From positions 248,001-312,000 of the forward strand of contig AP026137.1 in NCBI GenBank assembly GCA_030295235.1: DNA of 64,000 nt. Reading direction: 5' to 3'. Under the pieces are notes generated by a model. That model ran no database searches. It was not told the DNA's origin and was given only the letters and a program-made list of their open reading frames with translations. This stretch comes from Fistulifera solaris (taxonomy: Eukaryota). This document shows, one piece after another, positions 3,648-58,084 of this stretch. Both the position numbers and the translations under genes were made by a program. Every line of letters starts with the position of its first letter. Position 1 is the stretch's first letter.

Positions 3648-4929
3648 CTATTCTAACGTTATGATAAATGGTATAAACGACATAAAACAAACTCCACATC
3701 CCAACAAAGCAGAAATGGATGCATTCGAACGACGATTCACAAGAGCCGACTCAACTACCATTTTCGACTTCTTCACCCGGAAACGCTTCTCCCGCACATG
3801 AAAGGCATACACTTGTTCGTGAACGATACACATCAGCGCATGTACTTATCAAACGAATAGTACCCGGGAACAACGGTGTCACGAGAAACATGTGGAAGAT
3901 CGTCGTCCACGTAAGAACGGAAATGTGCTGGATGGACCAACTCTCCAAGATGATTTCGGGAAGAACATATTTTCTTCCAAGGTATTTTCAACACGACGAA
4001 AGCTGCGATCGAATCTGCGTTCGCTGGCCGGCCTCCTTCTGCAACTCCAATGACTTCGTCATAGTACAGGCATTGCTTCTCTCCATCCGTCAACGAATGA
4101 TGACTGGGAATCTCGATGACAATAGACACAAGGACTGGCTTAAAGCTAAAACGAGAACGACGATCACTCGCGAATGGATGACGACGCCAGTGTCAGCGAT
4201 GTAGACGACGACGATGATGATGATTCTGAAGTGTCACAAAGAAAAGCACTGGTCAACACTGCCGAAGCTGGAATCTCCGTCCCCCGTTCACATGCACCCA
4301 CGACAACATCTCGTCAGACAACGTGTAGATATCGCCGTCAGCAGACGAAACAACGCGACGGATCACTTGAAACGAATGCATCAACAGCATCGCTTTTGAA
4401 GTCAGCTGGGAATGAAGGAAACACAGACTGCAAACCATGAATACTCGTCGTTCGTCGGGCGCTTGAAAGCAGGCTTCACGAACTTCTTCACCGCAGCCCC
4501 AAGTCCGCGAGCAATGCTGGAACGACGACGGGCGCTTTAGTGTCAACAAAGCATTCGAGCGCACACGCCAGCATCGCCGGGGCAAGAAGCAAGACTGCAT
4601 GAACGCACCGCAAGAGCTTCCTCCGCTGTAAGTCCTTCGCTAATCTCTGCCCACAGCAGCATTTCTTCAAGCGTTGGCATGTCCTCAATCGGCGAGAAGA
4701 CCCAAGCGCGCAACTCGTCGACACTGTCATTCTGGTCGATCATCACGTAAGATACATTGGAAACGAACGGCAAACTGTCCAGTTTTTCATCAACTTTCTT
4801 CAAATCGATGGGGACCTTGTAAGACGCAGGCGAGCTGCGGTGACGCAGATTCGCTTGCTTCCGCTTGAAAACCGACTTTACGCGACTCCGGAGGTTTCGA
4901 GAAGATGTTAACAAGCTTCTGATTTGCAT
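3648..4929 (-). CDS. Uncharacterised RVxF/HLGELxHPAxF family protein, subfamily A copy 1 (frameshifted in assembly)
   Basis: Starts MQIRSLL at 4929; RSRFSFKPVLVSIVIEIP...EKQCLYYD...RNHLGELVHPAHFRSY across frames. Close nucleotide paralog at 15100-16344. The 3' end is approximate. Confidence 0.7.
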
Positions 4930-5336
4930 TTGATGTCAATTGATTGATACAATAGGCAATAGTAAGTGTAAAGGCAACAAAACGGGTTTTTGTGAATTTT
5001 TTGCTGCTGCGGCGGCGCTGCTGCTGACGGACGACGTATAGACCGTTCTGAAAGAGTACCGCATTGCATGATTTCATATTTTCTTCATACATCGGAAATA
5101 CCTCAATGACTCTTAGCGGTACTTGTCGATCGTAGCTGGTAGTAGTCTAGACTAAAAGGTATAATAGTCTCTAAACTTGCAAACTTTAATAAAATGCTAG
5201 ACAAGTATTCAATATTTTTATAGTAAATAAACTACACTAAGGCAATTGTTGACGCAAAACGACTTTAAAACTCTTTTATTTTTTTAAGTTGGCAGTTGAT
5301 CATGATGAAACGAGACGAACGAAAGCAAAACGCATT

Positions 5337-6273
5337 TCAAAGCGAGAAGAACCATAACTCAACACAAACGATGCGAATGCGCACTAAATACCTTCGGAAA
5401 CAGCCTTGGATGTGGATGTTAGAGCAAATATAAAAATGCGGCGGTTGCAACTGCATTGATCGGCAAAAACCGACCACAGAGACCCACACACAAAATTTAT
5501 GGCTGTGTGGTAGAGTGGAAGATCCCGTGCAGCTTGGCGTCATAGAAGCGCTGCCGTACTCAAGCATGTAGTACATGAAGACCCTCCACGACGAGAAGCC
5601 CGGAACAGAAGTACCAGGGCGAACTTCAGTCAACAGAGCACCAGCGAGAGTACGGTAGGAAATGAGCGGGATGGATTAACTCTCCGAGGTGATTGTGAAA
5701 GAACATATCCTCTTCAAACACATTCTCGATGCAACGGAAGCTTCCTTCAAACGCAACTTCCATTGCGCTCTTATTCGCCTCCGCCTCCAACGTCAGCTTG
5801 TCAGTATACAAACGTTGCTTCTCTTCCACCGACATTGAAAAACAACTGGAAATCTCGATGACACTGGTTACAAGCTCCGAAGCAAAGGTGACGCGACGAA
5901 CACGACGCTGAATCAAGGATGTCAGGTCACTCTCGTTCGAAAGGACCGAACTAGCAGCAATGCTAGCGGTGTCGCACTCAGCGAAGTCAATCTCGTGTAC
6001 CGACGACATCAGCCGTTCTCGCGAACGACGCATCACTTCATTCGCTTCGATAGGTGACGTTAAAGCGAGCATGATATCTTCACGTCTCTCTTCTTCCCGA
6101 GAACACAGCACCGGAGACGACAAGTGCATCATTATCATACCTCGACTCAACCGCAGGTTCATGCGACATTCGCGAACGCTTTGCTCAGGACTTTCTGCTC
6201 GCTTTTCCGGGGCAGACGAGTTCACGTGACTGTTAATGCTTAAAGCAGCATCAAATTGGGTAGAAACTTGCAT
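5337..6273 (-). CDS. Uncharacterised RVxF/HLGELxHPAxF family protein, subfamily B
   Basis: MQVSTQ start at 6273; RRVRRVTFASELVTSVIEI...EEKQRLYTD...ENVFEEDMFFHNHLGELIHPAHFLPY. The shifted-frame continuation VPGFSSWRVFMYYM matches the VPGYYSF / ITGYCS block of the other copies. Confidence 0.75.
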
Positions 6274-6347
6274 TGTTTTGGTTGGATAGACGATAATATC
6301 GATTCTAGTTTGCAAAGGGGGTGTTTTTGTGTTTTTTGCTATGCTGC

Positions 6348-6814
6348 TGTTGAAATCTCTACCGCGGTATCAGGGACTCCACACACCCCAGACGAAAGAC
6401 TATTGAAACACAACTTTGCTCCAAACACTCGTTTACAGAATTATGACGATTTCCTACGATTACTTTTGCTCTCCTCTTTTCCACTGGTTTACGATCTGAT
6501 CTTGACTTGATCGTGCCAAGTCCATTTCTCCGATAACAACTTTAAAATAAAAACAGATAATTCTCCCGAGCCACCAGATTCTTCATTTCGCATTCCTTAG
6601 CAACAACCATCGTCCATAATTGCACATTAGATTCTTCCGTGATCCCAAATCCCCAAACATATAGTTCAAACACTTCCGAAAACTCCGTTTACGAATAGAG
6701 TCACTCCCAATAAACTAAACGGTCATTTCGAACCATTCCGACATTCGCTGACGTGTCCACTCATGACTGACAATCTTTCAGTCCGACACTCAACCTTGAT
6801 CACTCTCTTTGACA
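6348..6814 (-). repeat. 3' LTR of Copia element (467 bp)
   Basis: Direct repeat of 11192-11677; starts TGTTGAAA and ends TTTGACA on the + strand. Confidence 0.95.
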
Positions 6815-9800
6815 TCCTCCCTGTCGGCTGCTAAGATTAGCTGCGTCATGAGTCCCTCTCTAACAACCGGCACCAACAGATCATGGATTTTCTCTGTCAC
6901 ATTCTTGGTCTCCAGATCTGCAATGTTCCTTTCCGATCGAGTAAACTTCACAACCAGCCTAGCTTCTTCTTCCTCCGTTGCAGCCATCATTTCTCTGATA
7001 AAATGCATCCGGATATCGATGTGTTTCGTCCTATTCCCCACAACTTGGTTCTCCATCAAGAAGATTGCGCCCGTATTATCTTCAAACAACGTAGCCGGTC
7101 GAATCTTCACCTTCGGAAACAACTCTTCGAATAGCATCTGCAAAAACTTGATGTCCGTCGCACACGTAGATGCCGCGTAATATTCCGCCTCCGACTTCGA
7201 CAATGTCACCGCCGGTTGCAACTTGCTTGAAAAGCCACACAAACAACCTCCAATGGTAACAAAGTAACCAGTAACACTTTTCCGCGTCTCCTTGTTCGTA
7301 GCAAAGTTCGAATCCACCCATGCGTAAACCTTCAAATCAACAGGCTCGCGCAACTTCAAATCAACGTCCGTACTCTCGAGATAGCCAACCAATCTCTTCA
7401 TCGCTCTCCAATGTTCTTCACCTGGCGAATCCATAAACATTGCAAGTTCCCTAACCGCATTTCCACATTCCGGAGCTACTTTCCGCACCAGCCACATGAG
7501 ACGCCCGAAACTTCCGATACTGATCCTTGTTCACTGGTTCGCCTTCGTGCTTCACAAGCGATTCCCCTGGATATCCCGGTGTCTTCTCCGCTTTCAACGG
7601 TCCAATCAGCTCCTTCCAATCTTTCACTATCTCATCCTTGTACTCATCCATTCGCACTTCGTAAAACTCTGCTGCTTCATCTGACTTTCTCTCGCACCAA
7701 ACTCCCAAGTGTTTCTGAATAGGGCCCAACTCCGTAATGTTGAAGCGCTTCTTGATCTCTTTCTTGAACCAATTGATTTCCTCTTGGGGACCGGCAAGGA
7801 TACAATCATCGACATACACAACGATGATCAAAACTGTCTCGCCGTTCACCACTTTAAACCAAACACACGGATCCGCAGCGCTCTGAATAAGCCCCAGCTT
7901 CCTCAACTCGGCACAGTAGAGCATGAAGTACTCTCTTGGACTCTGAACCAAACCGTACATGGCTCTCTCCAATAGAATGATGTAGTCAATCAATTCCTCA
8001 TACGTGATGTACCCAAACTCATATAGCCCAAAGGGCCATTCAAGATACACCTCCTCTCTCAACTTCGGCTTCCAGAAACGCGGCCTCAACGTCAATAACT
8101 TCCGTCACCCACATCTTCTTCCACATGTATAACACAACTGCCAATACCATTCGAACCGACATATCCAATGCAACAGGTGAATGCGAAAGAGTAAAGTCCA
8201 CACCAGGGATTTGAACAAACCCCCGCTGCAAGACAAGTCCGGAAGCTTTGAAACGAATTCCTGTCGCCTCTTTCTTCTTCTTGAAAATCCACTTCGGTAG
8301 TGACAGGCTTTCGTCCTCTCTCCTTCATCTGCTTTCTAGGAACCATCTTCCAAGCATCTCTCTTGATGAAGTTCTCAATCTCCTTCTTCATTGCCTCTTT
8401 CCACTTGTCTGCATCCCGGACCAACCAAAGCTTCCTTGTAAGTTTTCGGTGCACCAGGATCCGACACCAACTCCGTATTCAAAACATAATGAAAATAACC
8501 TTCCGACACATCAATGGCATTGACCTCTCCTCCTTTGGCGTTCATTGTTGGGTTGTATGAAGTGTTCAGCCTTGCCATCTCTCTATTCAGTCTTTTCACT
8601 GTCAATTGCGTCTCTTTCGGCTGATTCGGTGCTGGAGTATTGTCCGCCGTAGCCTCAGGTACCAGAGCTTCCGTAGGACCTTCCACAGCCTCTTCGACAA
8701 CTTCCTCTGCCGCTTTCTCTTCGACAACTTTCCTCCCTGCTCCAGCATCGACATCTGCGAGCAACACCGGCCGAATTGTGACTTCCTCCCCAATTTGATC
8801 ATCCTTTAGGTCGACTTCCATTCCAGTTGCAAACATCCTCAACTCTAATGCAACCGAAGCACTCGAACCATGCCAATCTGCCCAAGTGACGTCACGCGAG
8901 AGAATGACAATATTTTCCTCCGGCTTGTAAACTCGACACGTATCGCCTGAATGCGAATCCGCGTATCCAACCATCACACATTTCACTGCCTTCTTCTCCA
9001 TCTTTCGCTGTTTGTTGCGTGAAAGTCACGTATCCAATCCGCCCCCACTGAACCAAGTGTTGCAATATCTTAGGATGCTCGCCGTACCACGCATAATCCG
9101 GGCTCGATTCCACATTCCGATTAGGGACAGCGTTATCCAACTTTGTTGCCGTGTGAACAGCCTCCGGCCACAACTTTCCTTGATGCTCATCCGGCAACTT
9201 CGCCAACATCATCGCAAGGGCCTTATCGCCGAATTGTCGTGAACTTTCTCTCAACAACACCGTTCATCTGCGGAGTATGTGGGGCAGTAAACTCCATAGC
9301 TATGCCCCTCGACTCACATATCTCCTGAATCTTTCCGTTCTCGCCTGCATTATCACACCGAATGTATTTCACGTTTACGCTCGGATCTCCCTTCAAGCGA
9401 TCAAGAAACAACGTCATGATATTCCCAATCATCGACTTCTTCAGTAACAAAGAAACTCCAAGCCTTGCGCGTGTAGTCATCCACCAATAAGATCCAGTAG
9501 CAACTCTGTCCCAACGATTTCTTGTAGGGCCCGCTGATGTCCACATAGAATCGTTCTCCTTTCGCGACTTTGGTCGCCGTTGACTTGCACACCGACTTCG
9601 CCGCTTTGCATACGCTGCACGCCTCGCATGTCTCCTTAGTTCCAGTCAACTCAATTCCTAACTGTTTCATGAGGCTCTTCAACGAACGTCGCTTGCATGT
9701 CCGTACATCTCGTGCGCCAGCGTTTATGTCCATCTTCACTTTCGTCTCGACAGCATGGACATTGGACTTCACAACACTGCCCTTCAGATAGTACAACCCA

Positions 9801-11133
9801 TAATGTGACTGAGGCACCGTCAACACACTCTTTCCCGAAGGGTCAGTAATCTTCATCGCACAACTGGTCATCTCAATCTTGCACCCTTGCTTCACTAGAG
9901 CCCCTGTACTTATGATATTCTTCAGCGAACGTCGGCACCACCTTGACTTCACTCAACTTCATAGTACCACCCACAGTAGCGAGCTCGAGTATACCCTTCT
10001 TGTGTACTTTGACTTCCGTTCCGTCACCAACAATCAAAGACTCCTTCGGTCGAAACAACATCGCGCAAAATTGTTTCATCAACAACAACATGGCACGTCG
10101 CTCCACTGTCGAGAAGAAACTTGTCCTTGTCTTCGACCTTCAACACTTCGACCGCACCAACTTGATGAACAACTCCACAGAACTCTTCGCCGCCTTTGCC
10201 GACCTCATAGCACATGCCCACAAACGTGTTCAACTCCTTGTTGTCCGACTTCGAATCCTTGCCATTCGACTTCTCTGGACACTCGCGACTGAAGTGGCCT
10301 TCCTTGCCACAGTTGAAGCAAACTTTCTTCTTGTCGCTCTTGCACTCCGCTGCCTTGTGTTCCCTGCTTGCCGCAGTTGCGGCACTTTCCCTGAACTTCT
10401 TCTTAAAGCCACCCTTGCCCTTCTCGACGCTTTTAATGCTAGATTTTTGTTTTCTTTTTTTTTCTTTTTTCTTTTTCTTCGCTTTTCTTCGTCGTCCTTG
10501 GGCTTGAAACAGCGCTTCCACTTGTTCCTGATTTCCTTCTCGAGGTCTTCAATCGAGGTCTCGTTGATCTTCCCGCTCAACTTGGTAATCACATCCGAAT
10601 ATTCTTCAGGAAGGTTGGCCAAGTAGTGGGCCTTCAACACGAAACTTGGCTTAACGTACTGCGATCCGATCGTCTTCAACTGATTCTGCAACCGATCGCA
10701 CTCCAAGAAGAACTTGTCGGGGTCATCCTCCTTCGGACGCCAACTTGCACCGACCAAACTCCGCCAACACTTCTGCCAAATCTTCCTCGCTGTTCCGGGC
10801 GTACTTCACATCCAAAAGCTTGAATGCCTCTCTCGCATCACCATCCGCTCTCTTGACAAGACCCAAAGGAACTCCTTCGCAAGCAATCACCAACAAGTCG
10901 ATGATCTCGAGATTGCTTCGATATAGCTCCTTGTCCTTCGCCGCCGCCGCCTCCCATCGCAACTTCTTTCGTGAGGAATCTCGGTCTTCAAGTCATCAAA
11001 CACACTGGTCCAACCTCGCTTCGTGATCAGCGACATCGTCTTGAACTTCCAATCATCGTGACGACTTCTCGGCGACCTTGTCATCCAACGGGTAGAAGGT
11101 CAAAGCCCTCATCTTCTCTCCCTCGTCGGCCAT
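6790..11133 (-). CDS. Copia gag-pol polyprotein (many frameshifts)
   Basis: Zinc knuckle CFNCGKEGHFSREC, protease FLLDSGATCH, integrase IRCDNAGE...TAPHTPQMNGVVER, RT LIIVVYVDD, RNase H WVDSNFA...RTKHIDIR...ADLETK. The last ORF reads into the 3' LTR. Confidence 0.9.
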
Positions 11134-11191
11134 CTTGTCTTGTCTTGTCTCGTAACTCTTTTTTTTTCTCAAACGCCCACGCTTTAAAGCG

Positions 11192-11677
11192 TGTTGAAAT
11201 CTCTACCGCGGTCTGTAACTGCTCTCGGCTATCGGGGACTCCACACACCCCAGACGAAAGACTATTGAAACACAACTTTGCTCCAAACACTCGTTTACAG
11301 AATTATGACGATTTCCTACGATTACTTTTGCTCTCCTCTTTTCCACTGGTTTACGATCTGATCTTGACTTGATCGTGCCAAGTCCATTTCTCCGATAACA
11401 ACTTTAAAATAAAAACAGATAATTCTCCCGAGCCACCAGATTCTTCATTTCGCATTCCTTAGCAACAACCATCGTCCATAATTGCACATTAGATTCTTCC
11501 GTGATCCCAAATCCCCAAACATATAGTTCGAAACACTTCCGAAAACTCTGTTTACGAATAGAGTCACTCCCAATAAACTAAACGGTCATTTCGAACCATT
11601 CCGACATTCGCTGACGTGTCCACTCATGACTGACAATCTTTCAGTCCGACACTCAACCTTGATCACTCTCTTTGACA
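11192..11677 (-). repeat. 5' LTR of Copia element (486 bp)
   Basis: Direct repeat of 6348-6814 with an extra 18 nt (TCTGTAACTGCTCTCGGC) and a few substitutions. Confidence 0.95.
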
Positions 11678-12508
11678 TGCTGCGGCGCTGCTGCTGTTGA
11701 CGAGCGGGGACAGAGCTGTTTGGTGGTAAGACATCGTTCTCTATGTAGTTGAAACCGGTCCGATTCATACTTGCAATAATAAGAGGCAGTTATTGATGCG
11801 ATGCGATGAAGAGCTACGATGATGCGATGATGGAGGATGAATGAATGAGAATAATAGGCGTTCAGAAAGGTTACCAGGTAATCCTCATATTCATTCTGCA
11901 ATTAAAGAAAAATGGCTTAGAGATTTGAGCAACCGATAATTTGTGGGGGATGCGGTGTAAGTACTCTGCTGCCCTACGAATTTTGCTCTTCGTCTGAAGC
12001 GACGAACTAGCCGTCCCGCAACGGTCTTCGGTCCAGCGTCCCCAAATTCGGTGGGCGATTAGCAGTCTGAGCTGGCAAATGCACGTAAAGGATACAATAC
12101 GGGAATTTTCATTTAGCCTGTGTTTAAGACGCCACAATACCTCAATAAGTGAATGATGTCAGAAGAAAGAGGAGACAGGACCCTTGACAGGACCTTGTTC
12201 ATGTTTAAGAAAGCGAAACCACAGCAAACGAGGGCAGGCCAGTTTGTAGATAAAGTGCTACAAGATCGAAGCATTATTGATAAGATCAGACAACATCATA
12301 CTGGTCTTCCCGTTTTGCAGGCTAGTGAGATTCTACTTTCTGCTGTAGTATCTACCTCCTTGCAACCAGTTTCACGGGCTGATCCCGACAAATCATCGAA
12401 GCTCAAAAAGGAATGAAGCAGACTACTGAAGGGCTAAAACGCTTCATCTTCACACTTTCAAACAAAAGTCGTTGCTACAGATTAAATGCTGGCGATGTGC
12501 GATAATAG

Positions 12509-15099: not shown

Positions 15100-16344
15100 A
15101 ATCTAAACGAAATAAAACAAACCCCACATTCCAACGAAAAGATATGGATGCATTCGAACGACGATTCACAAGAGCCGACTCAACTACCATTTTCGACTTC
15201 TTCACCCGGAAACGCTTCTCCGCACACATGAAAGGCATACACGTGTTCGTACCAATACACATCAGCGCATGTACTTATCAAACGAAGAGTATCCGGGAAC
15301 GATGGTGTCATGAGAAACATGTGGAAGGTCGTCGTCCACGTAAGAACGGAAATGTGCTGGATGGACCAACTCTCCAAGATGATTTCGGAAGAACATATTT
15401 TCTTCCAAGGTATTTTCGACCACGACGAAAGCTGCGATCGAATCTGCGTTCCGCGCGGTTTCGCTCTCCTTCTGCAATTCCAATGATTTCGTCATAGTAC
15501 AGGCATTGCTTCTCTCCATCCGTCAACGAATGATGACTGGGAATCTCGATGACAAAAGACACAATTTCTGGCTAAAAGTTGACACGAGCGGCAGCCCTCG
15601 CAACGGATGACGACGATAAAGAAGACGACGGCGACAACGACAAACATGCTGTAGTGTCACAAAAAAGAGCACTGGGCGACACTGCCGAAGCAGGAAGCTC
15701 GGTCCCCCCGTTCGCAAGCACCCACGACAACATCTCGTCGGGCAACGTGTTGGCATCTTCGTCAGCAAGCGAAACAGCGCACGGATCACATGAAACGTAT
15801 GCATCAATATCTTCTTTGAAGTTAGATGACAATGAACGGAGCACAAAATGCGAACGCTCAATGCTCGCCGCCGTCGGCACTTGAAAACAGGCTTCACGAA
15901 CTTCTTCACCGCAGACCCAAGTCCGCGAGCAATGCTGGAACGACGACGACACTTTAGTGTCGGCAAAGCATTCGAGCGCACAGCGCATCGCCGGGGCGAG
16001 AAGCAAGACTGCATGAACGCACCGCAAGAGCTTCCCCGGGTGTAAGTCCTTCGCTGATCTCTGCCCACAGCAGCATTTCTTCAAGCGTTGGCATGTCCTC
16101 AATCGGCGAGAAGACCCAAGCACGCAACTCGTCAACACTGTCATTCTGATCAATTTCCACGTAAGCCACATCGGAAACGAACAGCAAATTGTCCACTTTT
16201 TTATCTACTTTCTTCAGAGTCGATGGGGACCTTGTAAGACGCAGGCGAGCTGCGGTGACGCAGATTAGCTCGCTTCCGCTTGAAAACCGACTTCCCGCGA
16301 CTCCGGAGGTTTCGAGAAGATGTTAACAAGCTTCTGATTTGCAT
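15100..16344 (-). CDS. Uncharacterised RVxF/HLGELxHPAxF family protein, subfamily A copy 2
   Basis: Paralog of 3648-4929 including upstream sequence; ARVNF followed by an in-frame TAG, then PEIVSFVIEIP; ENTLEENMFFRNHLGELVHPAHFRSY. The 3' end is approximate. Confidence 0.7.
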
Positions 16345-16991: not shown

Positions 16992-18208
16992 TTAACGGAT
17001 GATGAAACGAGATCCAAACGATGGAGAAACGCAAATACCACTAGCACCGTGGTGAGATCGATTTGGAGACGCATCAACTTTCCAGATACACAACATCTCA
17101 TCCGAACCCATGGAAGCGAGCTTGCAACCATCGGGGCTCATATCCATTGTCAAGATGCGGCCTTTGTGCAAAGACAAACTCTGAATCGGCTCCATCTTTG
17201 GGTAACTCCACGCAATGACCACATTGCTTGGACTAGAGGTCGAAAAGCCATGGCTGGAATACAACTCCTGATGATGACGCCCCCCAAATCAACGAAGAAA
17301 CTTGACTGTTGGTAGAAACGCTCTTCAACATATTCCCGGAAATTGCACTCCACAGCTTGATGCAGCCATCGGCAGTTCCGCCGCCAGTCGCGAGCATATC
17401 GCCGATAAGGACACCACGCCAGTCCCTTGACAGCCGCCGTGCGATTCCAGTACAAGTCGAGGTCCGGCATTGTTGATCATGGAAGGATCCCAAAGATGAA
17501 CTGCGTTATCATTTCGACCTCTTGCAAGGCACGTTCCTTCTGCATTCCAGGCCAGGTTGCAGACTGACAACACACCTGACGATGACGCTGATCCAGACAC
17601 GGTCATCCCTGTGACAGACCGAGAACGCAAGTCGAGATTCGCGAATCTCACTGTTCAGCGCATCCAGCCGTCAACCAATTTCGCTGAATCGTTCCAGCAA
17701 AGTGCGCGCACTGGGCTTCTTGCCGAGGTCAAGGAGGTGCAAACAACTTCTTTGTTGCTGATGGTGTCGTACACGCGAACAAAGCCTGAACTCGTTCCTA
17801 CTGCCAGCAGGTGCGTCATACCGTCCATTGTGCACCACTTGACAGATCGAACGTAATTCGAGGTCTCGTTTTCGTCAAGGGGTGTAATACCAGCGCCCCC
17901 AATCTCATGAACGGCACGAGTAGACTCGTTCATGACGCATACAGATGATCCCAGAGCCACAGCCAGCAAATTGTCTTTACTCCAGCTGAGTGGATGCGTA
18001 TAGTAATCATTTACAATACCCGGTACATCGAGAATGACTTCAGGACGGGATTTGAGGACACGAGCAGCGTTTACAATGACCTTTTCAGCCGTCAAGGTCG
18101 GGAAGGACGCAAGAAGTCCATCAGCGAAGGGTCCGCGTAGCAACGATAGGACGACGATTACTTGTCGTGGAAGGAGAAACAGAGCCGTACTTTAAAAGAG
18201 ACTTCAAT
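16992..18208 (-). pseudogene. CDC20: Cdc20/Fizzy APC/C coactivator copy 1, 5'-deleted and disrupted by a Copia element
   Basis: ILDVPGIVNDYYTHPLSWSKDNLLAVALG, AVKGLAWCP, LATGGGTADGCIKLW and C-terminal IR tail (FGSRFIIR*). The N-terminal C-box region is absent; its promoter and a split ATG lie at 21874 onward. Confidence 0.9.
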
Positions 18209-21200
18209 CCTTGGTACCACCAAAACCAGAGTAAAGACGTCCTCTCGTTGGAAACAGAGAAGTGATCCATTGAAACCTTCTGGCCCGGAATTAAAATATC
18301 CTTCGAGAGAACTTTGGATTGGCGATCGACGGTCAATTTCGCTCCAGTCGACTTGGCGCTTTCCTTTTCCATACATGCAAGCAGCGCTTGGGAATCGTAC
18401 AACGCGCCGCCCTGGACTTCAGCAGACTTTCCGAGAGCGCCGGTTTTGAGCAAGGCTTGAATGCTTTTCATGCTTCGGTGAACAAATCGGAAATGCAAGC
18501 GAAGAAGAAACTTCTGTGCGTCACTCAAGTTTTGATTCTCAGCTGTGGTAACACAGTTTTGAATCTTCGCAGCATTGAGAGCAACAGATTGTTTTCGGAA
18601 CATCTCCAGAGTCGGCAAATTGTTTTCAGGAGAGTATGCAATATCAAGAAAGTGGCCGTCCAACAAGTTGACATGAATGAGGCTCGAGTCGCCGGAAAAA
18701 CGCGGTTCGTCGTTTCGCGCCTTCACCAATTGACAATAAGACTGTGGGCTGAAGAGTCGAACATTCGCATTGGGCACATGTAATCCGGGAATCCGAAAAG
18801 TAAAGCCCTTGCCGTTGGACAGAGTAGCAGTCCATTCAAGAGTACCTCGCCCGCAATCGAAGAACCTGCAGCAAAGCCAGACAAAACTGTATCTCCAGTA
18901 GTAGGAGTGTAGGATGTGAAGTCATCACGGTCAAAAGTAACAGCAACTGTGGCTCCAGTGTCCCAAATAACCGGAAACAGATTCGCCATGGTCGGCTTTC
19001 CAGCGACATGGACTTGATGCAAAGCAGGGAGGGCATAAATAGACGGGGGCAGCTTCAGCGTACGGTGCAAAGTATGCTTTAGAATTGACTACACTATTAT
19101 CTCCCTCTCGAAGCAACACCGTCTCAGTAGCTCCCTCTGGAATAGAATGTCCAGTGGGATAGCAAAACAACGGCGTCATCGAGTAGGTGCCATGGCGTGG
19201 GATGGTCGTGCGGCGGACACGGCATATCAAACGACTTCGGTATTCAAATGACCGTTCGATCTATCATATCCGGAAGCTCCAATGCCCAACGCGGAATCAC
19301 TTGAAGTCGTCCTCAACGTTTTCTCCTCGCCGCAGGCTCAACAAAACGATTTTGCTTTCAACGCCGAAAAACACCACCCTCACCATGCTGACAAGTCGAA
19401 GCTTTGGATGATGAAGAAGGATCAGGAGGTCGGCGCAAACGTCGGCTACAATCACTTGGATGAAATCGGTGACAGCCATGCCAGGGCGGGCACCAAGTTA
19501 ACTCCATAGACAACACCAGGGGCTCCGAAGCGTCACTCGCCACATGCTCGTCATGATCGGAAGAAAGCACCATGAAACGACACGGGAGAGAGATGAGACG
19601 CTCGGGCAAAGGTTTGAATCGCGTCGAAGACCAAGAGAGCGACGATGAGCGGCACTTTGGGCACGCAACCACTTCGAAATGGTCGCAGCAACACGGAAAT
19701 GACGCCACCAAGAAAAGCACTCAACAATCAACCAGTAAAGAATAAAATGCTTCGGCGAGAGCTCCAACAACAAACGACCGATAAAGATGAATAAAAGGCT
19801 CAGGAAGGGACCTCGATCGAAAGGTTCACCTTCCCTGCCGATTTCCTATTCGAATCGCTGTCGGAACCCCAACAGAACTGCAAGGGTGCCGTCCAAGCTT
19901 GGGCAACATTAGCGGCAGGAGCGGCGGGCTTGGCATCAGCGGGCTTCTCTTCCTTGCTCTTGTGCTCGCCGGTTCCATGGGTCTGGTTCCAGCGCTTGCA
20001 TTTGGCGCAATAATAGAAAGTCTTGCCGTACTTGGTCATGGTGGTGGGCTCTCCATCCTTCGAGCGATGCGAGTCCAACGAGTTTCGGTCAAACCGCCGC
20101 CTTTCTTTTCGCCATCACCACCGCCAGTCTTCGTAGCAGCCTTGTCTTTGTTCGCCTTCTTGTCCTTGGTCTTCGAGGGAGGCAGTTTTAGTGCCATTCG
20201 ACTCGAATTTCGACTTGAGGGTCTTGAACTCGGCTTTGAGACTCTTGATCGCCGCAGCATTAGCACTAACTTCAGTAGTAGTTCCTTTAGCCGGTCCCCA
20301 ATCTTCCTTTAGGTTGCTGTAGACATCCTTTGCTTCATGGAGAATGCGGCGATAGTTGGTGTAGCCGCTCATCCTTTCAGCAACTTCCTTCGACTTTCCG
20401 GCAGAGAGACGCACAAAGTCGGAGAGGGATGCGAAGCCGTGTGCCAGTGAACACGGAATCCTTCGACCGAGCAAGTGCACAGCTGCTGCTGCAAAATGAC
20501 CAAGTGATCGCGAGGGAGCTGATCATTGGCCTCCAACTCTTGCAAAGTCTCCATCTGCGCATTCGCCCCAGGCAGCAACATTTTCTCCGGGAGTTTCGAC
20601 CAACTTGCGCTTGCGAACACCTCTTCGAGTTCGGAGACACGGCGAAAGGCGTTTGGAAGAACTTCTTCGGTGATTTTCATCCAAACCAAAGGTCCAAGGC
20701 GCGCATGAGCAGAGCTCAAAGAAGTTCGAATCGTGCGCTGGAAGGAGCTCCAACGAGTTAAACAGAAAAGCAGCCGAATCGCTAAGCGAATCGATCATAT
20801 ACTGATCAAACACACCGGACTTGATCATGTCTTCGAGGTGCTTCGCGACTTCATCGAAGGTGAACTTGCCGTGGTAGACGAAGAGATCAATCACTCGACT
20901 GAGATCAGCAGGATCGTTCATGAAGAACGGCGTATCGAGACCATGCGTAATGCAATGGTTGAACGCTGAATCAGCGAGCTCAACAAGGCGATAGTCATTC
21001 GCAGTAGGACTGAACTTGGGGTCGAGACCGGAGATGCGATCCTTGAAACTTTTCTCGGCGATACGGATTCGGATCTCGAAAGCAGTAGGGCGTCGCAGGC
21101 ACAAGGTTAACACTGCGAGTAAAGCTTGCATCCGGAGCACCACCAATGGCTGGGATAGAACATTGAACAAGGCCGAACTTCGGCACGAGAACGGGCTCGG

Positions 21201-21873: not shown

Positions 21874-22030
21874 ATGGTGTGTTTTTTTGGTTCAAAGCAA
21901 AAATTATGCGGATGAAGGCTTGCTGCGGTACAAATTTATACGCCAGAGATCCGCTTACGTAGCCAAACGTACCAAGCTCCACGTAGGTTCTACATATAGA
22001 ATACAGACTGTATTATATCGTACCGGAACC
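21874..22030 (-). promoter_or_regulatory. Orphaned Cdc20 copy 1 upstream region
   Basis: Matches the sequence directly upstream of the ATG in Cdc20 copies 2-4 (ATGGTGTG...TTTTGGTTCAAAGCAAAAATT...ATGCGGAT...GGCTTGCTGCGGTAC on +). Confidence 0.8.
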
Positions 22031-29761: not shown

Positions 29762-29831
29762 TGAAGCAACAACTAACTCTTAGGTTGAATTTTGGTGTTT
29801 TTCTAGGTATTGAGAAGCTTGATTCACCGTA

Positions 29832-31543: not shown

Positions 31544-32477
31544 TCAAACACCAAAGATCCCGCACGCAAAGTAGAGTGTGAGCAGTAAAAGTGGAAGACG
31601 ACCGGTTCGAACACGCGCGACTCTTACGACTTTGCAGCACGAGCGAAGACGACGGCGGAGACGCTTCGCTTGCACAACTTGGATGGCTTTCGCGGCCCTG
31701 TCGGGTGAAAACGGCCCTCTGCAATAGCACTGTGCCAATCAGCCGTGTACTTTTTCATACAAGCCAGGTATTCCTCGCGTGAGCAATAACCGGTTATGGG
31801 AGTGTCAACGGGAAGATGTCCGAAAACATTGAACATGTAAGCGCGCGAATTGTGCAGGATGGGTCAGTTCTCCAAGATGTGTGCGAAAGAACTCATGTTC
31901 TTCCACCACATTATCCAGGCAGAACCGACTGCATTCAAACTCACGTTCCACCAACCTCTTATCACCCTCCAGGTTCAATGTCCGCACGTCGCAGTACATG
32001 CTGTCCTTCTCCTCCGTCGTCAATGAGAAACGATTGGGAATCTCCTTCACGCCCGTCACAATCTGCGGTGCGAAGCTGACACCTCTGAGAAGGAGAACAA
32101 GACAGGCTCGTCCATTTTTCGTCAGAGCCCTCCGCAACAATCGAGAAAGGCAGGACGGAAACCAGCGGTGCTTCCGGGCGCACAGCATGACGATGCTTCA
32201 TACGCAGGATCGACATCGGCTTCTTGCTCGACGGGCGTACTTCATTCGTCTCCTCACTCAATAACGGAGGGCACTCAGAGAGGTCACCAGGTTGCACTTG
32301 GGTCGCGAAGGAATCGCCAGAACCCACCAAAAGATCTCGATCTTGACTCGGGGCAACGGGCGGCTGATCTGCCGCCGAACACAATTTCTCGGGGCTTTTC
32401 GTTCGCTGCCGCTTGCACGACGAATAATCATTACTCTGGGGACTCAGAGAAGAGATAGAACGCTTTGAAACGCGCAT
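31544..32477 (-). CDS. Uncharacterised SILK/RVxF/HLGELxHPAxF family protein, subfamily C copy 2
   Basis: MRVSKRS...CKRQRTKSPE, KKPMSILRMKHR, RGVSFAPQIVTGVKEIP and EREFECSRFCLDNVVEEHEFFRTHLGELTHPAQF. The 3' end is approximate. Confidence 0.75.
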
Positions 32478-34188: not shown

Positions 34189-35861
34189 TCAGCGGATGGC
34201 GAAACGAGAACCAAACGAAGGGGATGTAAGACGATTTGCTGCGTCTGCTGATCGAGACCGCGAAGAAGCCGGGACAGCATCGATTTTCCAAATACACAAG
34301 GAATTATCAGCACCCATCGATGCGAGCTTCGTACCGTCGGGGCTCATTCCCATGGACAATATGCGACTTTCGTGACCGCGCAAAGTTTGTATCTGATCCA
34401 TCTTGGGGTAGCTCCAGGCGACAACAGCGTTCGTTGAAAAGTTCATTCCGTCCCCAAAGCCATGACCGGAGTACAACTCCTGATGGTGCTGACCCCAAAT
34501 CAATGAGCAGACTTGACTTCCAGTAGCCACACTCTTTAGCAGATTACCCGAGCAAGCATTCCACAGCTTGATGCACCCATCTGCCGTTCCCCCACCACTG
34601 GCGAGCACATCGCGTCGATAGGGACACCAAGCCAAACCCTTTACAGCACCCGTATGCGACGCCAAAATGTGTCGTGGACTTTGACCACGGCCCGACTCCG
34701 GTCTTCGCGTCATGGATGCATCCCACAGGTGAACCATATTGTCATTTCGACCGCTGGCAGACACGACCCCTCACTATTCCACGCTAAGTTGCACACCGAT
34801 GAAGAGCCTCCTACAGAGGGTGCCATTGTCATTGTTGTCTCGACGCCACTCGCGTAAGTCATGATTCCCAATCTTCCCGTTAGTGTACCCCGCGGTCAGA
34901 TATTGCCGAGATTCATTCCAGCATATTGCACGCATCGTACTGTTTCGACAACCCATGTTGGTCCGCATAATTTCTCTGCCGCAAGTTGTGTCGAACACTC
35001 GCGAAGCCAACACTCGTCGCTACAGCAAGGTGATGTGTGCTGCCGTCCATTGTGCACCACTTCACAGAGCGGACATGGTTTGAGAGACCCCTTTGGTGGA
35101 CAGGTGTTTTGCCGGCGCCCCGCTATTTCTTGCACAGCACCGGTAGACACGTTCATGAGGTACACGGATGTACCCAGCGCCACAGCTAGAACATTATCCT
35201 TGCTCCAGCTGGTCGGATTCGTGTAATAATCATCCACAATACCACGGGCATTTAACGTCTTCGCCGGATGAGGGCTAATTGTGCGCTTGATCGCGGCGAT
35301 GTTCAACTTTTGATCCAAAGTATTGAAATCGCAGCTCGATGATCGTAGCAAGTCCATCGCGAAAGGGTCCGCAGCAACGATAGGACGACGATTACCCGTC
35401 ATTAAAGGAGAAACAGAGCCGTACTTCAAAAGAGACTTCAATTGAAGCTCATCATCGAGATCGCTCGTCGACACATTGCACAACGTGCTCAGCAAGTGTT
35501 TCTCGTAAGCGAGTTTCGTCGAACGAGCTGCGGACGGAGGACCGGCGCAAGCAACACTGGACGATTCACACGACTTAGACGCAGAATTCAGCTTTCGACG
35601 ACACAAATCCATATTCATGCGACGACGAGACGGAATGAAACGATCCAGATCGTCACGAGGAGCAGTTTGCGGCGTAAACAAACGACGATGATGATGAGCA
35701 GTCGAACGCATGCGAGGGACTGGAGTTTTAATCATCTGCGGAGTGCGATACGCGACAGTCAGCGCCGCTCCGCGGTTTCCAGGACGATTAGGAGTTGATA
35801 GATGAGTATGCGAAAGCATATCAGAGGAAAGCACGTTGTTTTGAGAGCAAGAATACACCAT
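34189..35861 (-). CDS. CDC20: Cdc20/Fizzy APC/C coactivator copy 3
   Basis: C-box DRFIPSR, TLNARGIVDDYYTNPTSWS, SGRNDNMVHLWD, HTGAVKGLAWCP and IR tail FGSRFAIR*. Frameshifts in the middle. Confidence 0.92.
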
Positions 35862-39599: not shown

Positions 39600-40680
39600 A
39601 TGCGAGTTTCAAAGCGTTCTATCTCTTCTCTGAGTCCCCAAAGTCATGAGGAGTCGTCTCACAAGCGGCAGCGAACGAAAAGCCCCGAGCGATTGTGTTC
39701 GGCGGCAGATCAGCCGCCCGTCGGCCAGAGTCAACATTTTGATCTTTTCTTTGATTCTGACGCTTCCTTAGCGAACGTGGAGCCAAAAGACGATCGTTCT
39801 TCGTATCTTCACTTATCCTCTGAGGGAATGGAGTCGATGGGAGAAGTGATGCCCATGGCCTTGTTCCAGGAGTCGTATCAGTCTGATCTCAAGTCGAAGG
39901 ACCCGCTCGACTTCAGCGCGGCCTCTGTTGAATCTGTTCGACCTGGTGATCTTTCTGAGTTTTCTCCGTCACTCATTGAGGAGTCTGTTGATGTTCAAGT
40001 GGCGCAGGAAGCCGGTGTCGATCTTGCGTATGAAACATCGAAATGCCATCAGTCCGCAAGCACACCTGGCTTCCGTCCCGCCTTTATCGAAAATCACGGA
40101 GGACTCGAGCAAGAATGACGAACCATCTTTGTGTCCCTTCTCGTAGAGGCGTCACCTTTGCACCGCAGGTTGTGGCGGGTGTGACGGAGATTCCCAATCG
40201 CTCTCACGTGGACGAAAGAAGAGAAGGAAAGCATGCATTCCGACGGACGAACATTGAAGGCGGAGGGTGATATGAGGTTCGTGGAGCGTGAGTTCGAATG
40301 CAGTCGGTTCTGTCTGGATAATGTCGTGGAAGAAGATGAGTTTTTCCGGGATCACCTTGGAGAAATGGTCCATCCAGCATATTTTCACGCTTATGTGCGA
40401 TGTTATTCCACTTCTTGCTTCCGATCCACATCCCGGGATCTTTACACGCCCCGAATTTCGAAAGGCGATGATGCATTACTCCAAGTTTTATGACGACGCC
40501 CGTTCTGCAAAAGCGCTTTCACCCCAAGGAGGCAGAAAATGCGATGCAAGTTGTGGGCGTCGGCGCCTTCGTCGCCGCCGTCGTACATCGCGATCGTAGC
40601 TGCTGTGCTTATTGTTGCGTTTGTTTCTGAAGCTTTGACAATGTTGGTAGATACGTCCAATCCATGCCGGGATATCCATT
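39600..40680 (+). CDS. Uncharacterised SILK/RVxF/HLGELxHPAxF family protein, subfamily C copy 3
   Basis: MRVSKRS...KRQRTKSPE, RKPVSILRMKHR, RRGVTFAPQVV and EEDEFFRDHLGEMVHPAYF. Near-identical to 43299-44390; the 3' end is approximate. Confidence 0.75.
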
Positions 40681-41408: not shown

Positions 41409-43041
41409 TTAACGGATGACTAAACGAGATCCAAGCGATGGAGAAACGCAAATACCACTAGCACCGTGGGCGAGATCGAATTGGAGACGCATCAACTTTC
41501 CAGATACACAACATCTCATCCGAACCCATGGAAGCGAGCTTGCAACCATCGGGCTCATATCCATTGTCAAGATGCGGCCTTTGTGCGTAGACAAACTCTG
41601 AATCGGCTCCATCTTCGGGTAACTCCACGCAACGACCACGTTGCTTGGACTAGAGGTCGAAAAGCCATGGCTGGAATACAACTCCTGATGATGCCGGCCC
41701 CATATCAACGAAGAAACTTGACTATTGGTCGGCAGCTCTTCAACATATTCCGGAAATGGCACTCCACAGCTTGATGCAGCCATCGGCAGTTCCACCGCCA
41801 GTCGCTAGAGCATATCGCCGATAAGGACACCACGCCAGTCCCTTGACAGCCGCCGTGCGATTCCAGCATAAGTCGAGGTCCGGCATTGTTGGTCATGGAA
41901 CGATCCCAAAGATGAACTGTGTTGTCATTTCGACCGCTCGCGAAGGCACGTTCCTTCGGCGTTCCAGGCCAGGTTGCAGACTGACAACACACCTGACGAT
42001 GGCGCTGATCCAGGCACGGTCATCCCTGTGACAGAGCGAGAGCGCAAGTCAAGATTCACAATCTCACTGTTGGCACATCCAGCCGTCAACCAGTTCAGCG
42101 AATCGTTCCAGCAGAGTGCGCTGAACTGGGCTTCTTGCCGAGGTCAAGGAGGTGTGGACAACTTCTTTGTTACTGATCGTGTCGTACACGCCGAACAAAG
42201 CCTGAACTCGTTCCTACTGCCAGCAGGTGCGTCATCCCGTCCATTGTGCACCACTTAACAGATCGAACGTAATTCGAGGTCTCGTTTTCATCAACAGATG
42301 TGATACCGAGCCCGCAATCTCATGGACGGCACGAGTAGACTTCGTTCATGACGTACACAGACGATCCCAGAGCCACAGCAAGCAAATTGTCCTTACTCCA
42401 GCTGAGTGGATGCGTATAGTAATCATTCACAATATCCGGTGCATCAAGAACAACTTCAGGACGGGAATGGATAACACGAGCAGCGTTTACAATGACCTTT
42501 TCAGCCGTCAAGGTCGGGGAAGGACGCCAAGAAGTCCATCGCGAAAGGGTCCGCAGCAACGATAGGACGACGATTACTTGTCGTGGAAGGAGAAACAGAG
42601 CCGTACTTCAAAAGAGACTTCAATTGAAGCTCGTCATCGAGATTACTGGTCGAAACGTTGCACAGCGTGCTCAACAGGTGCTTCTCGTACGCGAGTTTCG
42701 TCGAACGAGCTGCGGAAGTAGGATCGGCGCAAGCAACACTGGACGATTCACACGACTTGGACGCAGAATTCAGCTTCCGACGACACAAATCCATATTCAT
42801 GCGACGACGAGACGGAATGAAACGATCCAAATCGTCACGAGGAGCAGTTTGCGGCGTAAACAAACGACGATGATGATGAGCAGTCGAACGCATGCGAGGG
42901 ACTGGAGTTTTAATCATCTGCGGAGTGCGAGGCGCGACAGTCATGCGCTCCGCGGTTTCCAGGATGATTAGGAGTTGATAGATGAGTATGCGAAAGCATA
43001 TCAGAGGATAGAACGTTGTTTTGAGAGCAAGAATACACCAT
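41409..43041 (-). CDS. CDC20: Cdc20/Fizzy APC/C coactivator copy 4
   Basis: ATG at 43041, C-box DRFIPSR, VLDAPDIVNDYYTHPLSWS and IR tail LGSRLVIR*. Closest to copy 1, including the 3' flank. Many indels. Confidence 0.9.
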
Positions 43042-43298
43042 GGTGTGATTTTTGGTTCAAAGCAAAAATTAAATTATGCGGATAAGGCTTGCTGCGGTAC
43101 AAAATTGTACGTGGGGATACGCTATGTAGGGATTTGTACCACGAACCACGTAGGCTTACATTATACAATACAGACTGCATTATACCGTACGGCAACTGTA
43201 TGGCCGCAGCAACGTTTGACACAATACCAGGTAAACTCAATAAAACAACGCTGTTGCTGATAATAATCTTTATTCTCATCTATAAACAAACAAACAAA

Positions 43299-44390
43299 AT
43301 GCGAGTTTCAAAACGTTCTGCCTCTTCTCTAAGTTCTAAGAATAATGAAGAGCCTTCTTGCAAGCGGCAGCGAACGAAAAGCCCCGAGCGATTGTGTTCG
43401 GCGGCAGATCAGCCGCCCGTCGGCCAGAGTCAACATTTTGATCTTTTCTTTGATTCTGACGCTTCCTTAGCGAACGTGGAGCCAAAAGACGATCGTTCTT
43501 CGTATCTTCACTTATCCTCTGAGGGAATGGAGTCGATGGGAGAAGTGATGCCCATGGCCTTGTTCCAGGAGTCGTATCAGTCTGATCTCAAGTCGAAGGA
43601 CCCGCTCGACTTCAGCGCGGCCTCTGTTGAATCTGTTCGACCTGGTGATCTTTCTGAGTTTTCTCCGTCACTCATTGAGGAGTCTGTTGATGTTCAAGTG
43701 GCGCGCAGGAAGCCGGTGTCGATCTTGCGTATGAAACATCGAAATGCCATCAGTCCGCAAGCACACCTGGCTTCCGTCCCGCCTTTATCGAAAATCACGG
43801 AGGACTCGAGCAAGAATGACGAACCATCTTTGTGTCCCTCCTCGTAGAGGCGTCACCTTTGCACCGCAGGTTGTGGCGGGTGTGACGGAGATTCCCAATC
43901 GCTCTACGTGGACGAAAGAAGAGAAGGAAAGCATGCATTCCGACGGACGAACATTGAAGGCGGAGGGTGATATGAGGTTCGTGGAGCGTGAGTTCGAATG
44001 CAGTCGGTTCTGTCTGGATAATGTCGTGGAAGAAGATGAGTTTTTCCGGGATCACCTTGGAGAAATGGTCCATCCAGCATATTTTCACGCTTATGTGTAC
44101 GATGTTATTCCACTTCTTGCTTCCGATCCACATCCCGGGATCTTTACACGCCGAATTCCGAAAGTCTATGATGCAATACTCCAAATTTTATGACAACGCC
44201 GTTCTGCAAAAGCGCTTTCACCCCAAGGAGGCTGAAAATGCGATGCAAGTTGTGGCATCGAAGTGCCTTCGTCGCCGCCGTCGTACATCGCGATCGTAGC
44301 TGCTGTGCTTATTGTTGCGTTTTGTTCTGAAGCTTTGAACATTGCTGTTATCGACATCCAATTCATGCGTGGGATCTGCACCTGAAAGTG
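43299..44390 (+). CDS. Uncharacterised SILK/RVxF/HLGELxHPAxF family protein, subfamily C copy 4
   Basis: ATG at 43299, SILR at 43719-43730, RGVTF at 43846-43860 and FFRDHLGEMVHPAYF. Divergent from Cdc20 copy 4; the 3' end is approximate. Confidence 0.75.

Positions 44391-55438: not shown

Positions 55439-58084
<2,646 letters not shown>

Follow-up and report, generated by a model that had tools for sequence, protein, structure and literature searches.

A real and old array of Cdc20/Fizzy genes interleaved with genes of an RVxF-motif protein family in Fistulifera solaris

We analysed a stretch of 64,000 nucleotides of Fistulifera solaris DNA (contig AP026137.1, positions 248,001 to 312,000; hereafter the window), in which four Cdc20/Fizzy genes (c1 to c4) alternate with seven copies (A to G) of a second protein family (Table 1). 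Pfam searches, tblastn and frame-tolerant alignment confirmed all eleven genes where a preliminary description of this DNA had placed them, the coordinates given there being the low ends of the genes for all eleven copies. Unrelated genes also lie within the array: an MFS transporter, a dynamin, an FSH1 hydrolase and an LTR element. The last of these is a Copia-type retrotransposon with direct repeats of 452 bp (6368-6818 and 11230-11681) that are 99.1% identical, and is treated here as context, outside the two families.

Table 1. Features of the array, in window coordinates; P-numbers denote database proteins, and breaks and stops are frame breaks and in-frame stop codons.
Feature	Position	Strand	Description
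Family copy A	3767..4929	-	Long-N-terminus subtype like P0031/P0032; RFSF replaces RVxF; 166/340 identical to P0031, 7 breaks, 0 stops (9 breaks against P0032)
Family copy B	5502..6273	-	RRVTF; 251/256 identical to P0028 (FisN_10Hu324), 4 breaks, 0 stops
Copia-type LTR retrotransposon adjoining copy B	6368..11681	-	RVT_2, SH3_retrovirus, zf-CCHC (Pfam)
Family copy C	15196..16344	-	Paralog of A, 88% DNA identity over 1467 bp; 5 breaks, TAG at 15574
Cdc20 c1	16992..18207	-	WD40 propeller and IR tail; some 140 residues, with the C-box, missing at the N-terminus; 372/373 identical to intact 376-aa ORF P0019, 7 breaks, 0 stops
Unrelated 3.7-kb insert between c1 and its former upstream region	18208..21870	.	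Cdc20 upstream block resumes at 21871
Orphan Cdc20 upstream block	21871..22129	.	Aligns with upstream regions of c2, c3 and c4
Family copy D	22843..23682	-	200/278 identical to P0005 (FisN_10Hu318), 4 breaks, 2 stops (TAA at 23402, TAG at 23211)
Cdc20 c2	27414..29016	-	Full length, C-box and IR tail; closest relative P0008 (360/496 identical), 3 breaks, 0 stops
Family copy E	31629..32477	-	SILRMK and RGVSF; 247/282 identical to P0005, 4 breaks, 0 stops
Cdc20 c3	34189..35861	-	Full length; 491/554 identical to P0009, 4 breaks, 0 stops
Family copy F	39600..40594	+	327/330 identical to intact 334-aa P0003, 6 breaks, 0 stops
Cdc20 c4	41409..43041	-	Full length; 511/525 identical to P0117 (FisN_10Hu306, 530 aa), 11 breaks, 0 stops
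Spacer between c4 and G	43042..43298	.	257 bp; divergent start codons at 43041 (-) and 43299 (+)
Family copy G	43299..44294	+	320/332 identical to P0003, 2 breaks

The CDC20/Fizzy WD40 profile PF24807 matched five of the seven ORF pieces belonging to the Cdc20 copies (E 7e-12 to 5e-55), and the remaining two, which gave no match to it, are N-terminal parts; with the frames split, no single piece reached the whole-protein cut-off of 200 bits. All four copies were covered when a full-length relative was used as the tblastn query. Searched against the PDB, the full-length relative P0009 matched human CDC20 best (E = 8e-65, residues 190-536, 222.7 bits) and FZR1 second (E = 3e-59, 204.5 bits), so that CDC20 is favoured only slightly. 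The C-box, whose consensus is DRFIPxR, reads DRFIPSR in c2, c3 and c4 and is absent from c1, and a C-terminal IR closes all four copies (FIIR, FTIR, FAIR and LVIR). A Mad2-interacting motif or a KEN box distinguishes Cdc20 from Cdh1, and a KSLLKYGSVSP stretch, judged by eye, could be such a motif. These genes share the WD40_CDC20-Fz propeller, the C-box (c2 to c4) and the IR tail with Cdc20/Fizzy APC/C co-activators. Unlike known Cdc20/Fizzy systems, they form four tandem paralogs within 27 kb, with homogenised 5' ends, diverged propellers and one copy that has no C-box, and they belong to a divergent clade on a long stem: a tree built without labelled Cdc20 or Cdh1 references gave a supported clade of 17 rows in three sub-lineages, and a stem of 0.85 substitutions per site separates this clade from the nearest other Cdc20-like sequences. 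Multi-copy sets of CDC20 occur in plants, and extra meiotic Cdc20 paralogs in yeasts and flies.

Two of the Cdc20 copies depart from the others. Upstream of c1, neither tblastn nor frame-tolerant alignment found homology to the missing N-terminus, and 3.7 kb of other DNA now lies between the gene and its upstream block, so that one or more of the Cdc20 genes may no longer function. Roughly 150 bases of this upstream block are nearly invariant across the four copies. The ORFs of the intervening insert had no Pfam match; one of them carries, by eye, a DTGA-like motif. For c2, no intact and nearly identical database protein was found, and at 27906 a conserved N-x-x-H-L-W stretch is absent.

The second family had been described as unknown, and as an orphan it no longer stands: the window copies are part of a wide and apparently diatom family, with 90 representative clusters matched at E <= 1e-3, most of which sit on short contigs. 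FisN_10Hu318, FisN_10Hu324 and FisN_10Lu313 belong to it and are annotated only as hypothetical proteins; such Fistulifera solaris entries carry no recorded family model or function. No Pfam family, PF10488 included, matched 13 window ORFs at E <= 0.01 or 14 database members at E <= 1, the four longest scanned family matches (P0054, P0071, P0080 and P0113) showed no domain at Pfam's cut-offs, and a profile of 26 members matched no PDB sequence. The proteins have a basic KRQRTKSPxR stretch, which is NLS-like and contains a CDK consensus site, as well as an extended disordered region and, at the C-terminus, a helical domain predicted with confidence; that module opens with a conserved RRVxF. In the AF2 model of one family protein, residues 1-130 have pLDDT <52 and residues 190-283 pLDDT >87, and the motif region is modelled at low to middling confidence, without secondary structure. 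P0043, a member found in a different sample, has a Cdc20-type peptide at its very N-terminus (12/19 identical, E = 0.004).

The preliminary description had called these proteins carriers of PP1-docking motifs. We scored RVxF-type motifs as [RK]x0-1[VI]{P}[FW] and SILK-type motifs as [GS]IL[RK]. With frame-tolerant alignment, the RVxF type is present in six of the seven window copies, the exception being A; in 52 of the 90 family representatives, many of the others being fragments, it precedes HPA at a constant spacing, and its V-x-F is invariant or nearly so among 26 aligned proteins. Short motifs of the RVxF type often arise by chance, so that one alone is no proof that a protein is a PP1 subunit. 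The SILK type is restricted to four of the seven copies (D, E, F and G) and their close relatives P0005, P0027 and P0029, and is absent from A, B, C and most of the wider family.

KNL1 and inhibitor-2 are among the PP1-interacting proteins that carry both SILK and RVxF motifs. The family resembles them in that about 45 residues separate [GS]IL[RK] from a more C-terminal [RK]x[VI]x[FW] in copies D, E, F and G, the V-x-F core is conserved, and the AF2 model assigns no secondary structure to the motif region. It differs in that its RVxF-type motif is not an isolated linear one but stands fixed at the head of a conserved module of about 90-150 residues, and in that only one subfamily has the SILK-type motif. 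The layout, with alternating hydrophobic residues after [RK]V[RH]F, is one that we take to resemble the PP1c-binding region of PPP1R15/GADD34. In a protein atlas, the nearest named cluster bears PF10488 in 41% of its members (score 0.83), which serves as a lead only; given no HMM match and no PDB match, we did not assign the family to the PPP1R15/GADD34 type.

Self-BLASTN showed that the copies are segmental duplicates with 66-98% identity, which rules out chance likeness and bears out the proposed physical linkage and co-amplification of the two families. The interleaving is thus one adjacency that was copied, not seven independent associations. Divergence among the copies is uneven: c2 and c3 are 98% identical over 655 bp that take in the upstream block together with the 5' end of the coding region, whereas their WD40 dS is about 2.4. 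Across the window Cdc20 copies, WD40 dS runs from 0.2 to above 2 and exceeds 1 in five of the six pairs, with dN/dS of 0.15-0.28. The family core gave dN/dS of 0.13-0.53 in 19 older pairs; the young pairs show no clear constraint (A-C, 0.67; F-G, 0.74 overall and 1.08 in the core, on very few changes). Fistulifera solaris is described as an allodiploid with two subgenomes (10.1101/2021.11.10.468027), and both families bear its chromosome-10 gene names in the H and L series, that is, in both subgenomes. A longest contig of 32,924 bp is given for each of FisN_10Hu318 (family), 10Hu319 (Cdc20-like) and 10Hu324 (family), and one of 245,677 bp for each of 10Lu313 (family) and 10Lu329/10Lu336 (Cdc20-like); the same pairing recurs among named genes of this species. 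Together, old constrained paralogs and chromosome-10 names in both subgenomes argue against the rapid turnover that had been proposed for the cluster. The array is real and old.

Since the interleaving traces to one copied ancestral adjacency, it is weak statistical evidence for a functional coupling of the two families. That every pairing stems from duplicated DNA blocks is in keeping with a reading in which the genes are functional and the families are neighbours by accidental ancestral adjacency, without shared function; the size of the family, the domain-free state of its longest scanned matches and the unrelated genes within the array point the same way. It is countered by the purifying selection that keeps both families side by side, by their naming on chromosome 10 in both subgenomes, by the divergent arrangement of c4 and G over a common spacer, which is a candidate shared promoter, and by the Cdc20-type peptide of P0043. 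We give such accidental neighbourhood slightly less than an even chance.

No copy in the window is a single open frame; each has 2-12 breaks, and we asked what these breaks are. Were they genuine, the locus would be a decaying array of dead duplicates, and several features suit that idea: the nonsense codons in C and D, the truncation of c1, the conserved WD motif missing from c2, and the retrotransposon and unrelated insert inside the array. However, frame-tolerant alignments of the four Cdc20 copies to their best references contained no in-frame stop in about 2,000 codons, which, with the low dN/dS, is at odds with decay. Copies c1, c4, B and F have near-identical intact counterparts among database proteins, and nearly all that sets these apart from the window copies is slips of one or two bases. 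In short-read contigs from two studies (X1 and X2), six of the 12 indel differences listed, out of 43 in all, coincide with frame breaks of c3, c4 and G, so that at most a minority of the breaks in c2, c3 and E is confirmed one by one. Near 34757 in c3, contigs of both X1 and X2 insert one letter; in c4 the sites are near 41555, 42340 and 42527; and at both breaks of G, X2 contigs insert two letters (+GG behind 43807 and +CG behind 44148). The essential CDC48 gene, which is nearly identical to plant CDC48A over the 224 residues aligned, is broken likewise, at T4-for-T5 and A6-for-A5 runs. Among 30 break sites, 23 lie at most two bases from a CG, compared to a background of 35% (p = 5e-6), and only one is near a homopolymer of at least four.

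These data indicate that most of the frame breaks are consensus indel errors concentrated at CpG rather than mutations. The core module of copy A emerged only once two compensating shifts had been applied. Real lesions are confined to the lost N-terminus of c1, the nonsense codons of C and D, and perhaps the lost WD motif of c2. Copies C (TAG within the RVNF motif region) and D (TAA within SILRV*) are probably pseudogenes, and c1 resembles one in part, by its truncation; most copies do not show the marks of dead duplicates, and a decaying array as a whole is very unlikely. Still less probable is an assembly artefact, with allelic or homoeologous haplotypes strung together and a false copy number and tandem order: the species is allodiploid, the window consensus is error-rich and no short-read contig compared reaches across two copies, but the WD40 dS values lie far beyond allelic difference, the short-read contigs fit separate copies (at least 99% alike in 125 of 153 and 150 of 180 records), named genes of both families are listed on same-sized longest contigs, and unique genes lie between the copies.

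We therefore favour, with a probability of roughly 0.7, a real, old and selectively maintained array derived from one ancestral pair of a Cdc20 gene and a small-protein gene, its frame breaks being mostly errors. In the history we propose, a Cdc20/Fizzy-type APC/C co-activator and a neighbouring small protein of the diatom family would have been segmentally duplicated together, repeatedly, with inversion, insertion and 5' gene conversion acting later. The preliminary interpretation is thus partly supported. It knew of no account of the pairing, and we likewise found no published description of an array of Cdc20 and RVxF-family genes.

As to function, the Cdc20 paralogs would retain a homogenised N-terminal segment for APC/C binding and regulation (C-box and TP sites), and this shared segment, together with the diverged substrate-binding propellers, suggests that they are probably alternative APC/C co-activators. 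From their motifs and predicted architecture, the family proteins are putative nuclear, CDK-regulated adaptors. That they dock PP1 is plausible, though by our guess somewhat doubtful; a functional coupling of the two families is likewise plausible but, again as a guess, rather less likely. PP1 is described as dephosphorylating CDC20 in animals (PMC7851957), and if such a coupling did operate in Fistulifera solaris, PP1 would, for example, remove CDK phosphates from the paralogous Cdc20s.

Comparing the 225 stop-to-stop ORFs of all six frames all-against-all by BLASTP revealed two repeated protein sets at 3.6-44.4 kb, both of which sit on segmental duplicates that share 66-98% identity in a self-BLASTN of the window. 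Pfam assigned PF24807, the CDC20/Fizzy WD40 domain, to five of the seven pieces of the first set; none of the 13 ORF pieces of the second set, flanks included, had a Pfam match. With full-length relatives as tblastn queries, we fixed the coordinates of four Cdc20 genes (c1-c4) and seven genes of a small RVxF-motif family (A-G). The four Cdc20 and seven family genes of the preliminary description are therefore borne out by BLASTP, Pfam and tblastn, its numbers being the low coordinates of the genes, and the window contains a duplicated pair of gene families. Copies c4 and G are divergent and separated by a 257-bp spacer. The Cdc20 copies have a conserved upstream block, in which by-eye inspection recognized no known promoter motif. 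Among the neighboring elements, a Copia-type LTR retrotransposon lies beside family copy B, and its 452-bp LTRs are 99.1% identical, indicating a recent insertion. Just upstream of c2 is a high-copy element, over which contig depth reached about 300, compared with 10-50 around it, in both DNA sequencing runs; it shows loose ends at 29306-29342 and contains a direct repeat (29361-29440 vs 29663-29741). Farther along are two tandem GDP-fucose protein O-fucosyltransferase (O-FucT) paralogs with 54-59% protein identity.

Gene copies, duplicated blocks and neighboring features of the array (copies placed by tblastn, identities to reference proteins and shifts from frame-tolerant alignment, block identities from self-BLASTN)
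Feature	Coordinates	Strand	Reference protein	Identity	Shifts	Contig indels at frame breaks
Cdc20 c1	16992-18207	minus	P0019 (intact 376-aa ORF)	372/373	7	
Cdc20 c2	27414-29016	minus			3	
Cdc20 c3	34189-35861	minus			4	34758
Cdc20 c4	41409-43041	minus	P0117 (FisN_10Hu306, 530 aa)	511/525	11	41550, 42341, 42527
Family copy A	3767-4929	minus				
Family copy B	5502-6273	minus	P0028 (FisN_10Hu324)	251/256	4	
Family copy C	15196-16344	minus				
Family copy D	22843-23682	minus				
Family copy E	31629-32477	minus				
Family copy F	39600-40594	plus	P0003 (334 aa)	327/330	6	
Family copy G	43299-44294	plus	P0003	320/332	2	43807, 44148
Duplicate block	3674-5130 vs 15104-16546			88%		
Duplicate block	16894-18208 vs 41308-42624			92%		
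Duplicate block	22210-23778 vs 31041-32573			76%		
Duplicate block	28505-29159 vs 35350-36008			98%		
Duplicate block	39548-40699 vs 43243-44403			94%		
Upstream block of c1	21871-22129					
Copia-type LTR retrotransposon	6368-11681					
Dynamin	12666-14740					
High-copy element	29070-29736					
O-FucT, first	48570-50600					
O-FucT, second	50927-52848					
CDC48	55528-58081					
Choline-transporter-like gene	58223-59991					

None of the copies is a single open frame in the window sequence. We wrote a protein-to-DNA aligner that permits shifts of 1 or 2 bases, and with it the differences between the copies and near-identical database proteins proved to be almost all shifts; c1-c4 contained no in-frame stops against their best references. 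Contigs from two DNA-type runs of two studies (X1 and X2) were mapped on 24401-44400, where 125 of 153 and 150 of 180 contig records, respectively, fit at 99% or better. Frame-break sites account for six of the 12 indel differences listed (12 of 43, with most c2, c3, and E breaks falling outside the list). CDC48, which lies outside the cluster and is near-identical to plant CDC48A across 224 residues aligned within one piece, is likewise broken and split over four frames: the frame changes at two homopolymers, a T4 where T5 would read through and an A6 where A5 would, and one further break lies in a GCGCG context. Dynamin, the choline-transporter-like gene, and the second O-FucT gene are also frame-split; frame breaks are absent from long neighbors, among them Sec24, Sec1, and the MFS gene. 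We defined 30 break sites against near-identical references only (5500-6300, 16990-18210, and 39600-44300), and 23 of these lay within 2 bases of a CG, compared with 35% of all positions across the same genes (binomial p = 5e-6). Homopolymer slippage was rejected as the main error type for the cluster, as only one of the 30 sites was at a homopolymer of at least 4, unlike CDC48, where two breaks do fall at homopolymer runs. Given the near-identical references, the contig indels, the broken CDC48, and the CpG clustering, we conclude that the window represents an error-rich consensus, with artefacts behind most of its frame breaks. The CpG-clustered breaks resemble consensus error linked to base modification and may mark gene-specific cytosine methylation. 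Three public F. solaris Cdc20-like models (P0007, P0011, and P0013) look truncated or chimeric, with P0013 fusing parts of two propellers, and the annotation of the cluster elsewhere may also carry sequence or model errors. In practical terms, an error-rich consensus can disguise live genes as pseudogenes, and gene models built from it turn out truncated or chimeric.

Real damage was also present. Copy c1 lacks about 140 N-terminal residues, including the C-box, and its conserved upstream block lies 3.7 kb off, beyond an unrelated insert. Copy C carries a TAG at 15574, and copy D a TAA at 23402 and a TAG at 23211. The conserved N-x-x-H-L-W stretch is missing from c2 at 27906, which may reflect either real loss or garbled consensus.

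Nei-Gojobori dN/dS on frame-tolerant codon alignments was 0.15-0.28 in all six Cdc20 pairs and 0.13-0.53 for the family core in 19 older pairs; the young family pairs were uninformative (A-C, 0.67; F-G, with few changes, 0.74 overall and 1.08 in the core). Purifying selection acts on both gene families. Synonymous divergence in the WD40 region was about 0.2 between c1 and c4 and 1.25-2.4 in the remaining five pairs. Despite their diverged propellers, c2 and c3 are 98% identical over 655 bp that run from the upstream block into the 5' end of the coding region, which points to gene conversion of a regulatory N-terminus over old propellers. Two chimeric models (P0011 and P0013) and P0006, a truncated model from the window itself, were kept out of the Cdc20 tree. 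Of its 23 rows, 17 formed one clade (support 100/100) with three sub-lineages: the first groups c2 and two ENA proteins, the second c3, the Cdc20-like P0009, and FisN_15Lu304, and the third c1, c4, 10Hu306, and 10Hu319. F. solaris genes of both families bear chromosome-10 names, which occur in an H series and an L series, and for several named genes of both families the longest contig has an identical listed length. Two F. solaris subgenomes are described in preprint 10.1101/2021.11.10.468027, and we infer that the series letters stand for these. With chromosome-10 names in both series, the array looks older than the hybrid genome, and the suggestion that the module turns over rapidly was not sustained.

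For the partner family, a word-indexed search recovered just two clusters. When 1.84 billion representatives were searched with a profile, 90 family proteins reached E ≤ 1e-3, 32 reached ≤ 1e-10, and 18 reached ≤ 1e-30; in the protein atlas, Bacillariophyta was the commonest phylum among the nearest clusters. The proteins share a module of approximately RRVxF-AP--V--V-EIPSH-S-T-EEK---Y/W ... E--FE ... EE--FF--H-GEL-HPAH, in which, across 26 aligned proteins, F, G, H, and P do not vary and V and I scarcely do. Two copies of the module occur in at least five proteins. In 52 of the 90, an RVxF-type motif precedes HPA by 55-100 residues; many of the remainder are fragments. A close subfamily has in common an N-terminal MRVS...KRQRTKSPxR stretch, which from consensus patterns we take to be NLS-like with a CDK consensus site. 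In an AlphaFold2 model built on the 26-row alignment, pLDDT was below 52 for residues 1-130, 71-76 for the motif region, which lacked secondary structure, and above 87 for residues 190-283, which form helices with a hairpin. No Pfam family scored above its cut-off on the family proteins (the best, at chance level, had E = 0.013), and a profile of 26 members had no match among PDB sequences at E ≤ 10. Searched with the AlphaFold2 model of the family protein P0005, Foldseek returned no PDB match at E ≤ 0.001 and a wide VIA-align search peaked at Z 5.9 on helical hairpins, a range rated common, so the family receives no fold assignment. Besides the motif, the sole pointer to PP1 came from the atlas, where a cluster with PF10488 in part of its members scored 0.83, rated as a lead only. 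Metagenome scans for family loci, with 348 pattern matches for the alignment query and 66 for P0001, gave no confirmed relative.

Spliced joints were found in two further runs (X3 and X4), whose cover lay at 24.4-27.1 kb, in patches within 28.4-29.7 kb, and at 35.7-39.1 kb; on the Cdc20 and family copies there were traces only (0.97 in the copy E bin and 1.47 in the bin of the c2 5' end), and absent cover says nothing on expression. Their contigs delimit four short introns of 64-82 bases at 24564-24752 and 36969-37580, which read CT..AC on the plus strand, that is GT..AG on the minus, within a gene to the left of the MFS gene and within those at 36.4-38.2 kb. Complex prediction of P0117 residues 150-530 with P0003 gave no answer, scoring 0.00 in two runs, and the result speaks neither for nor against binding.

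The Cdc20 paralogs would be alternative APC/C co-activators that share one regulatory N-terminus, and the small proteins may be nuclear adaptors with candidate PP1 docking; any coupling between them could run through the PP1-CDC20 link reported in animals (PMC7851957). The main rival, that two unrelated neighbors hitch-hiked together through the duplications, is in our judgment roughly as probable as functional coupling, if not more so. Against it stands a small hint of cross-talk elsewhere: the first 19 residues of P0043, a family protein from another sample, resemble the Cdc20-clade N-terminus (12/19 identical, E = 0.004; MMTSCLQNNVT vs MVTSCPQNNVT), which could reflect a 5'-end swap between neighboring genes of both families in another diatom. 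A fuller reading, to which we give a probability of roughly 0.1, holds that each Cdc20 paralog would have a neighboring PP1-targeting subunit of its own. The RVxF-module proteins would deliver PP1 to CDK-phosphorylated TP sites near the C-box and so time APC/C activation. The array would thereby supply alternative pairs, each of a co-activator and a phosphatase adaptor, for specialized divisions, for example in meiosis, gametogenesis, or size restoration, and the CpG-bound errors would be traces left by cytosine methylation silencing the array in vegetative cells.

In this array, a cell-cycle regulator has undergone lineage-specific amplification in company with a protein family not described before. 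The named genes have no annotation beyond hypothetical or domain-containing proteins. The papers found on F. solaris and CDC20 were, in the parts available, not about this cluster, and literature searches found nothing on CDC20 tandem duplication or on RVxF and protein phosphatase 1 in diatoms. To our knowledge, little is known of diatom cell-cycle control besides cyclins and checkpoint genes, and understanding of their sexual cycle and of the divisions that restore cell size is poor. Four maintained APC/C co-activator paralogs with diverged substrate-binding propellers point to specialized forms of APC/C activity in diatoms. The partner family, with no Pfam model, at least 90 clusters, and a conserved RVxF-type motif heading a confidently predicted domain, is for these reasons a concrete candidate set of PP1 regulators specific to diatoms; if the fuller reading of paired co-activators and PP1 adaptors is true, this wide diatom family would make up a class of PP1 regulators particular to the lineage.
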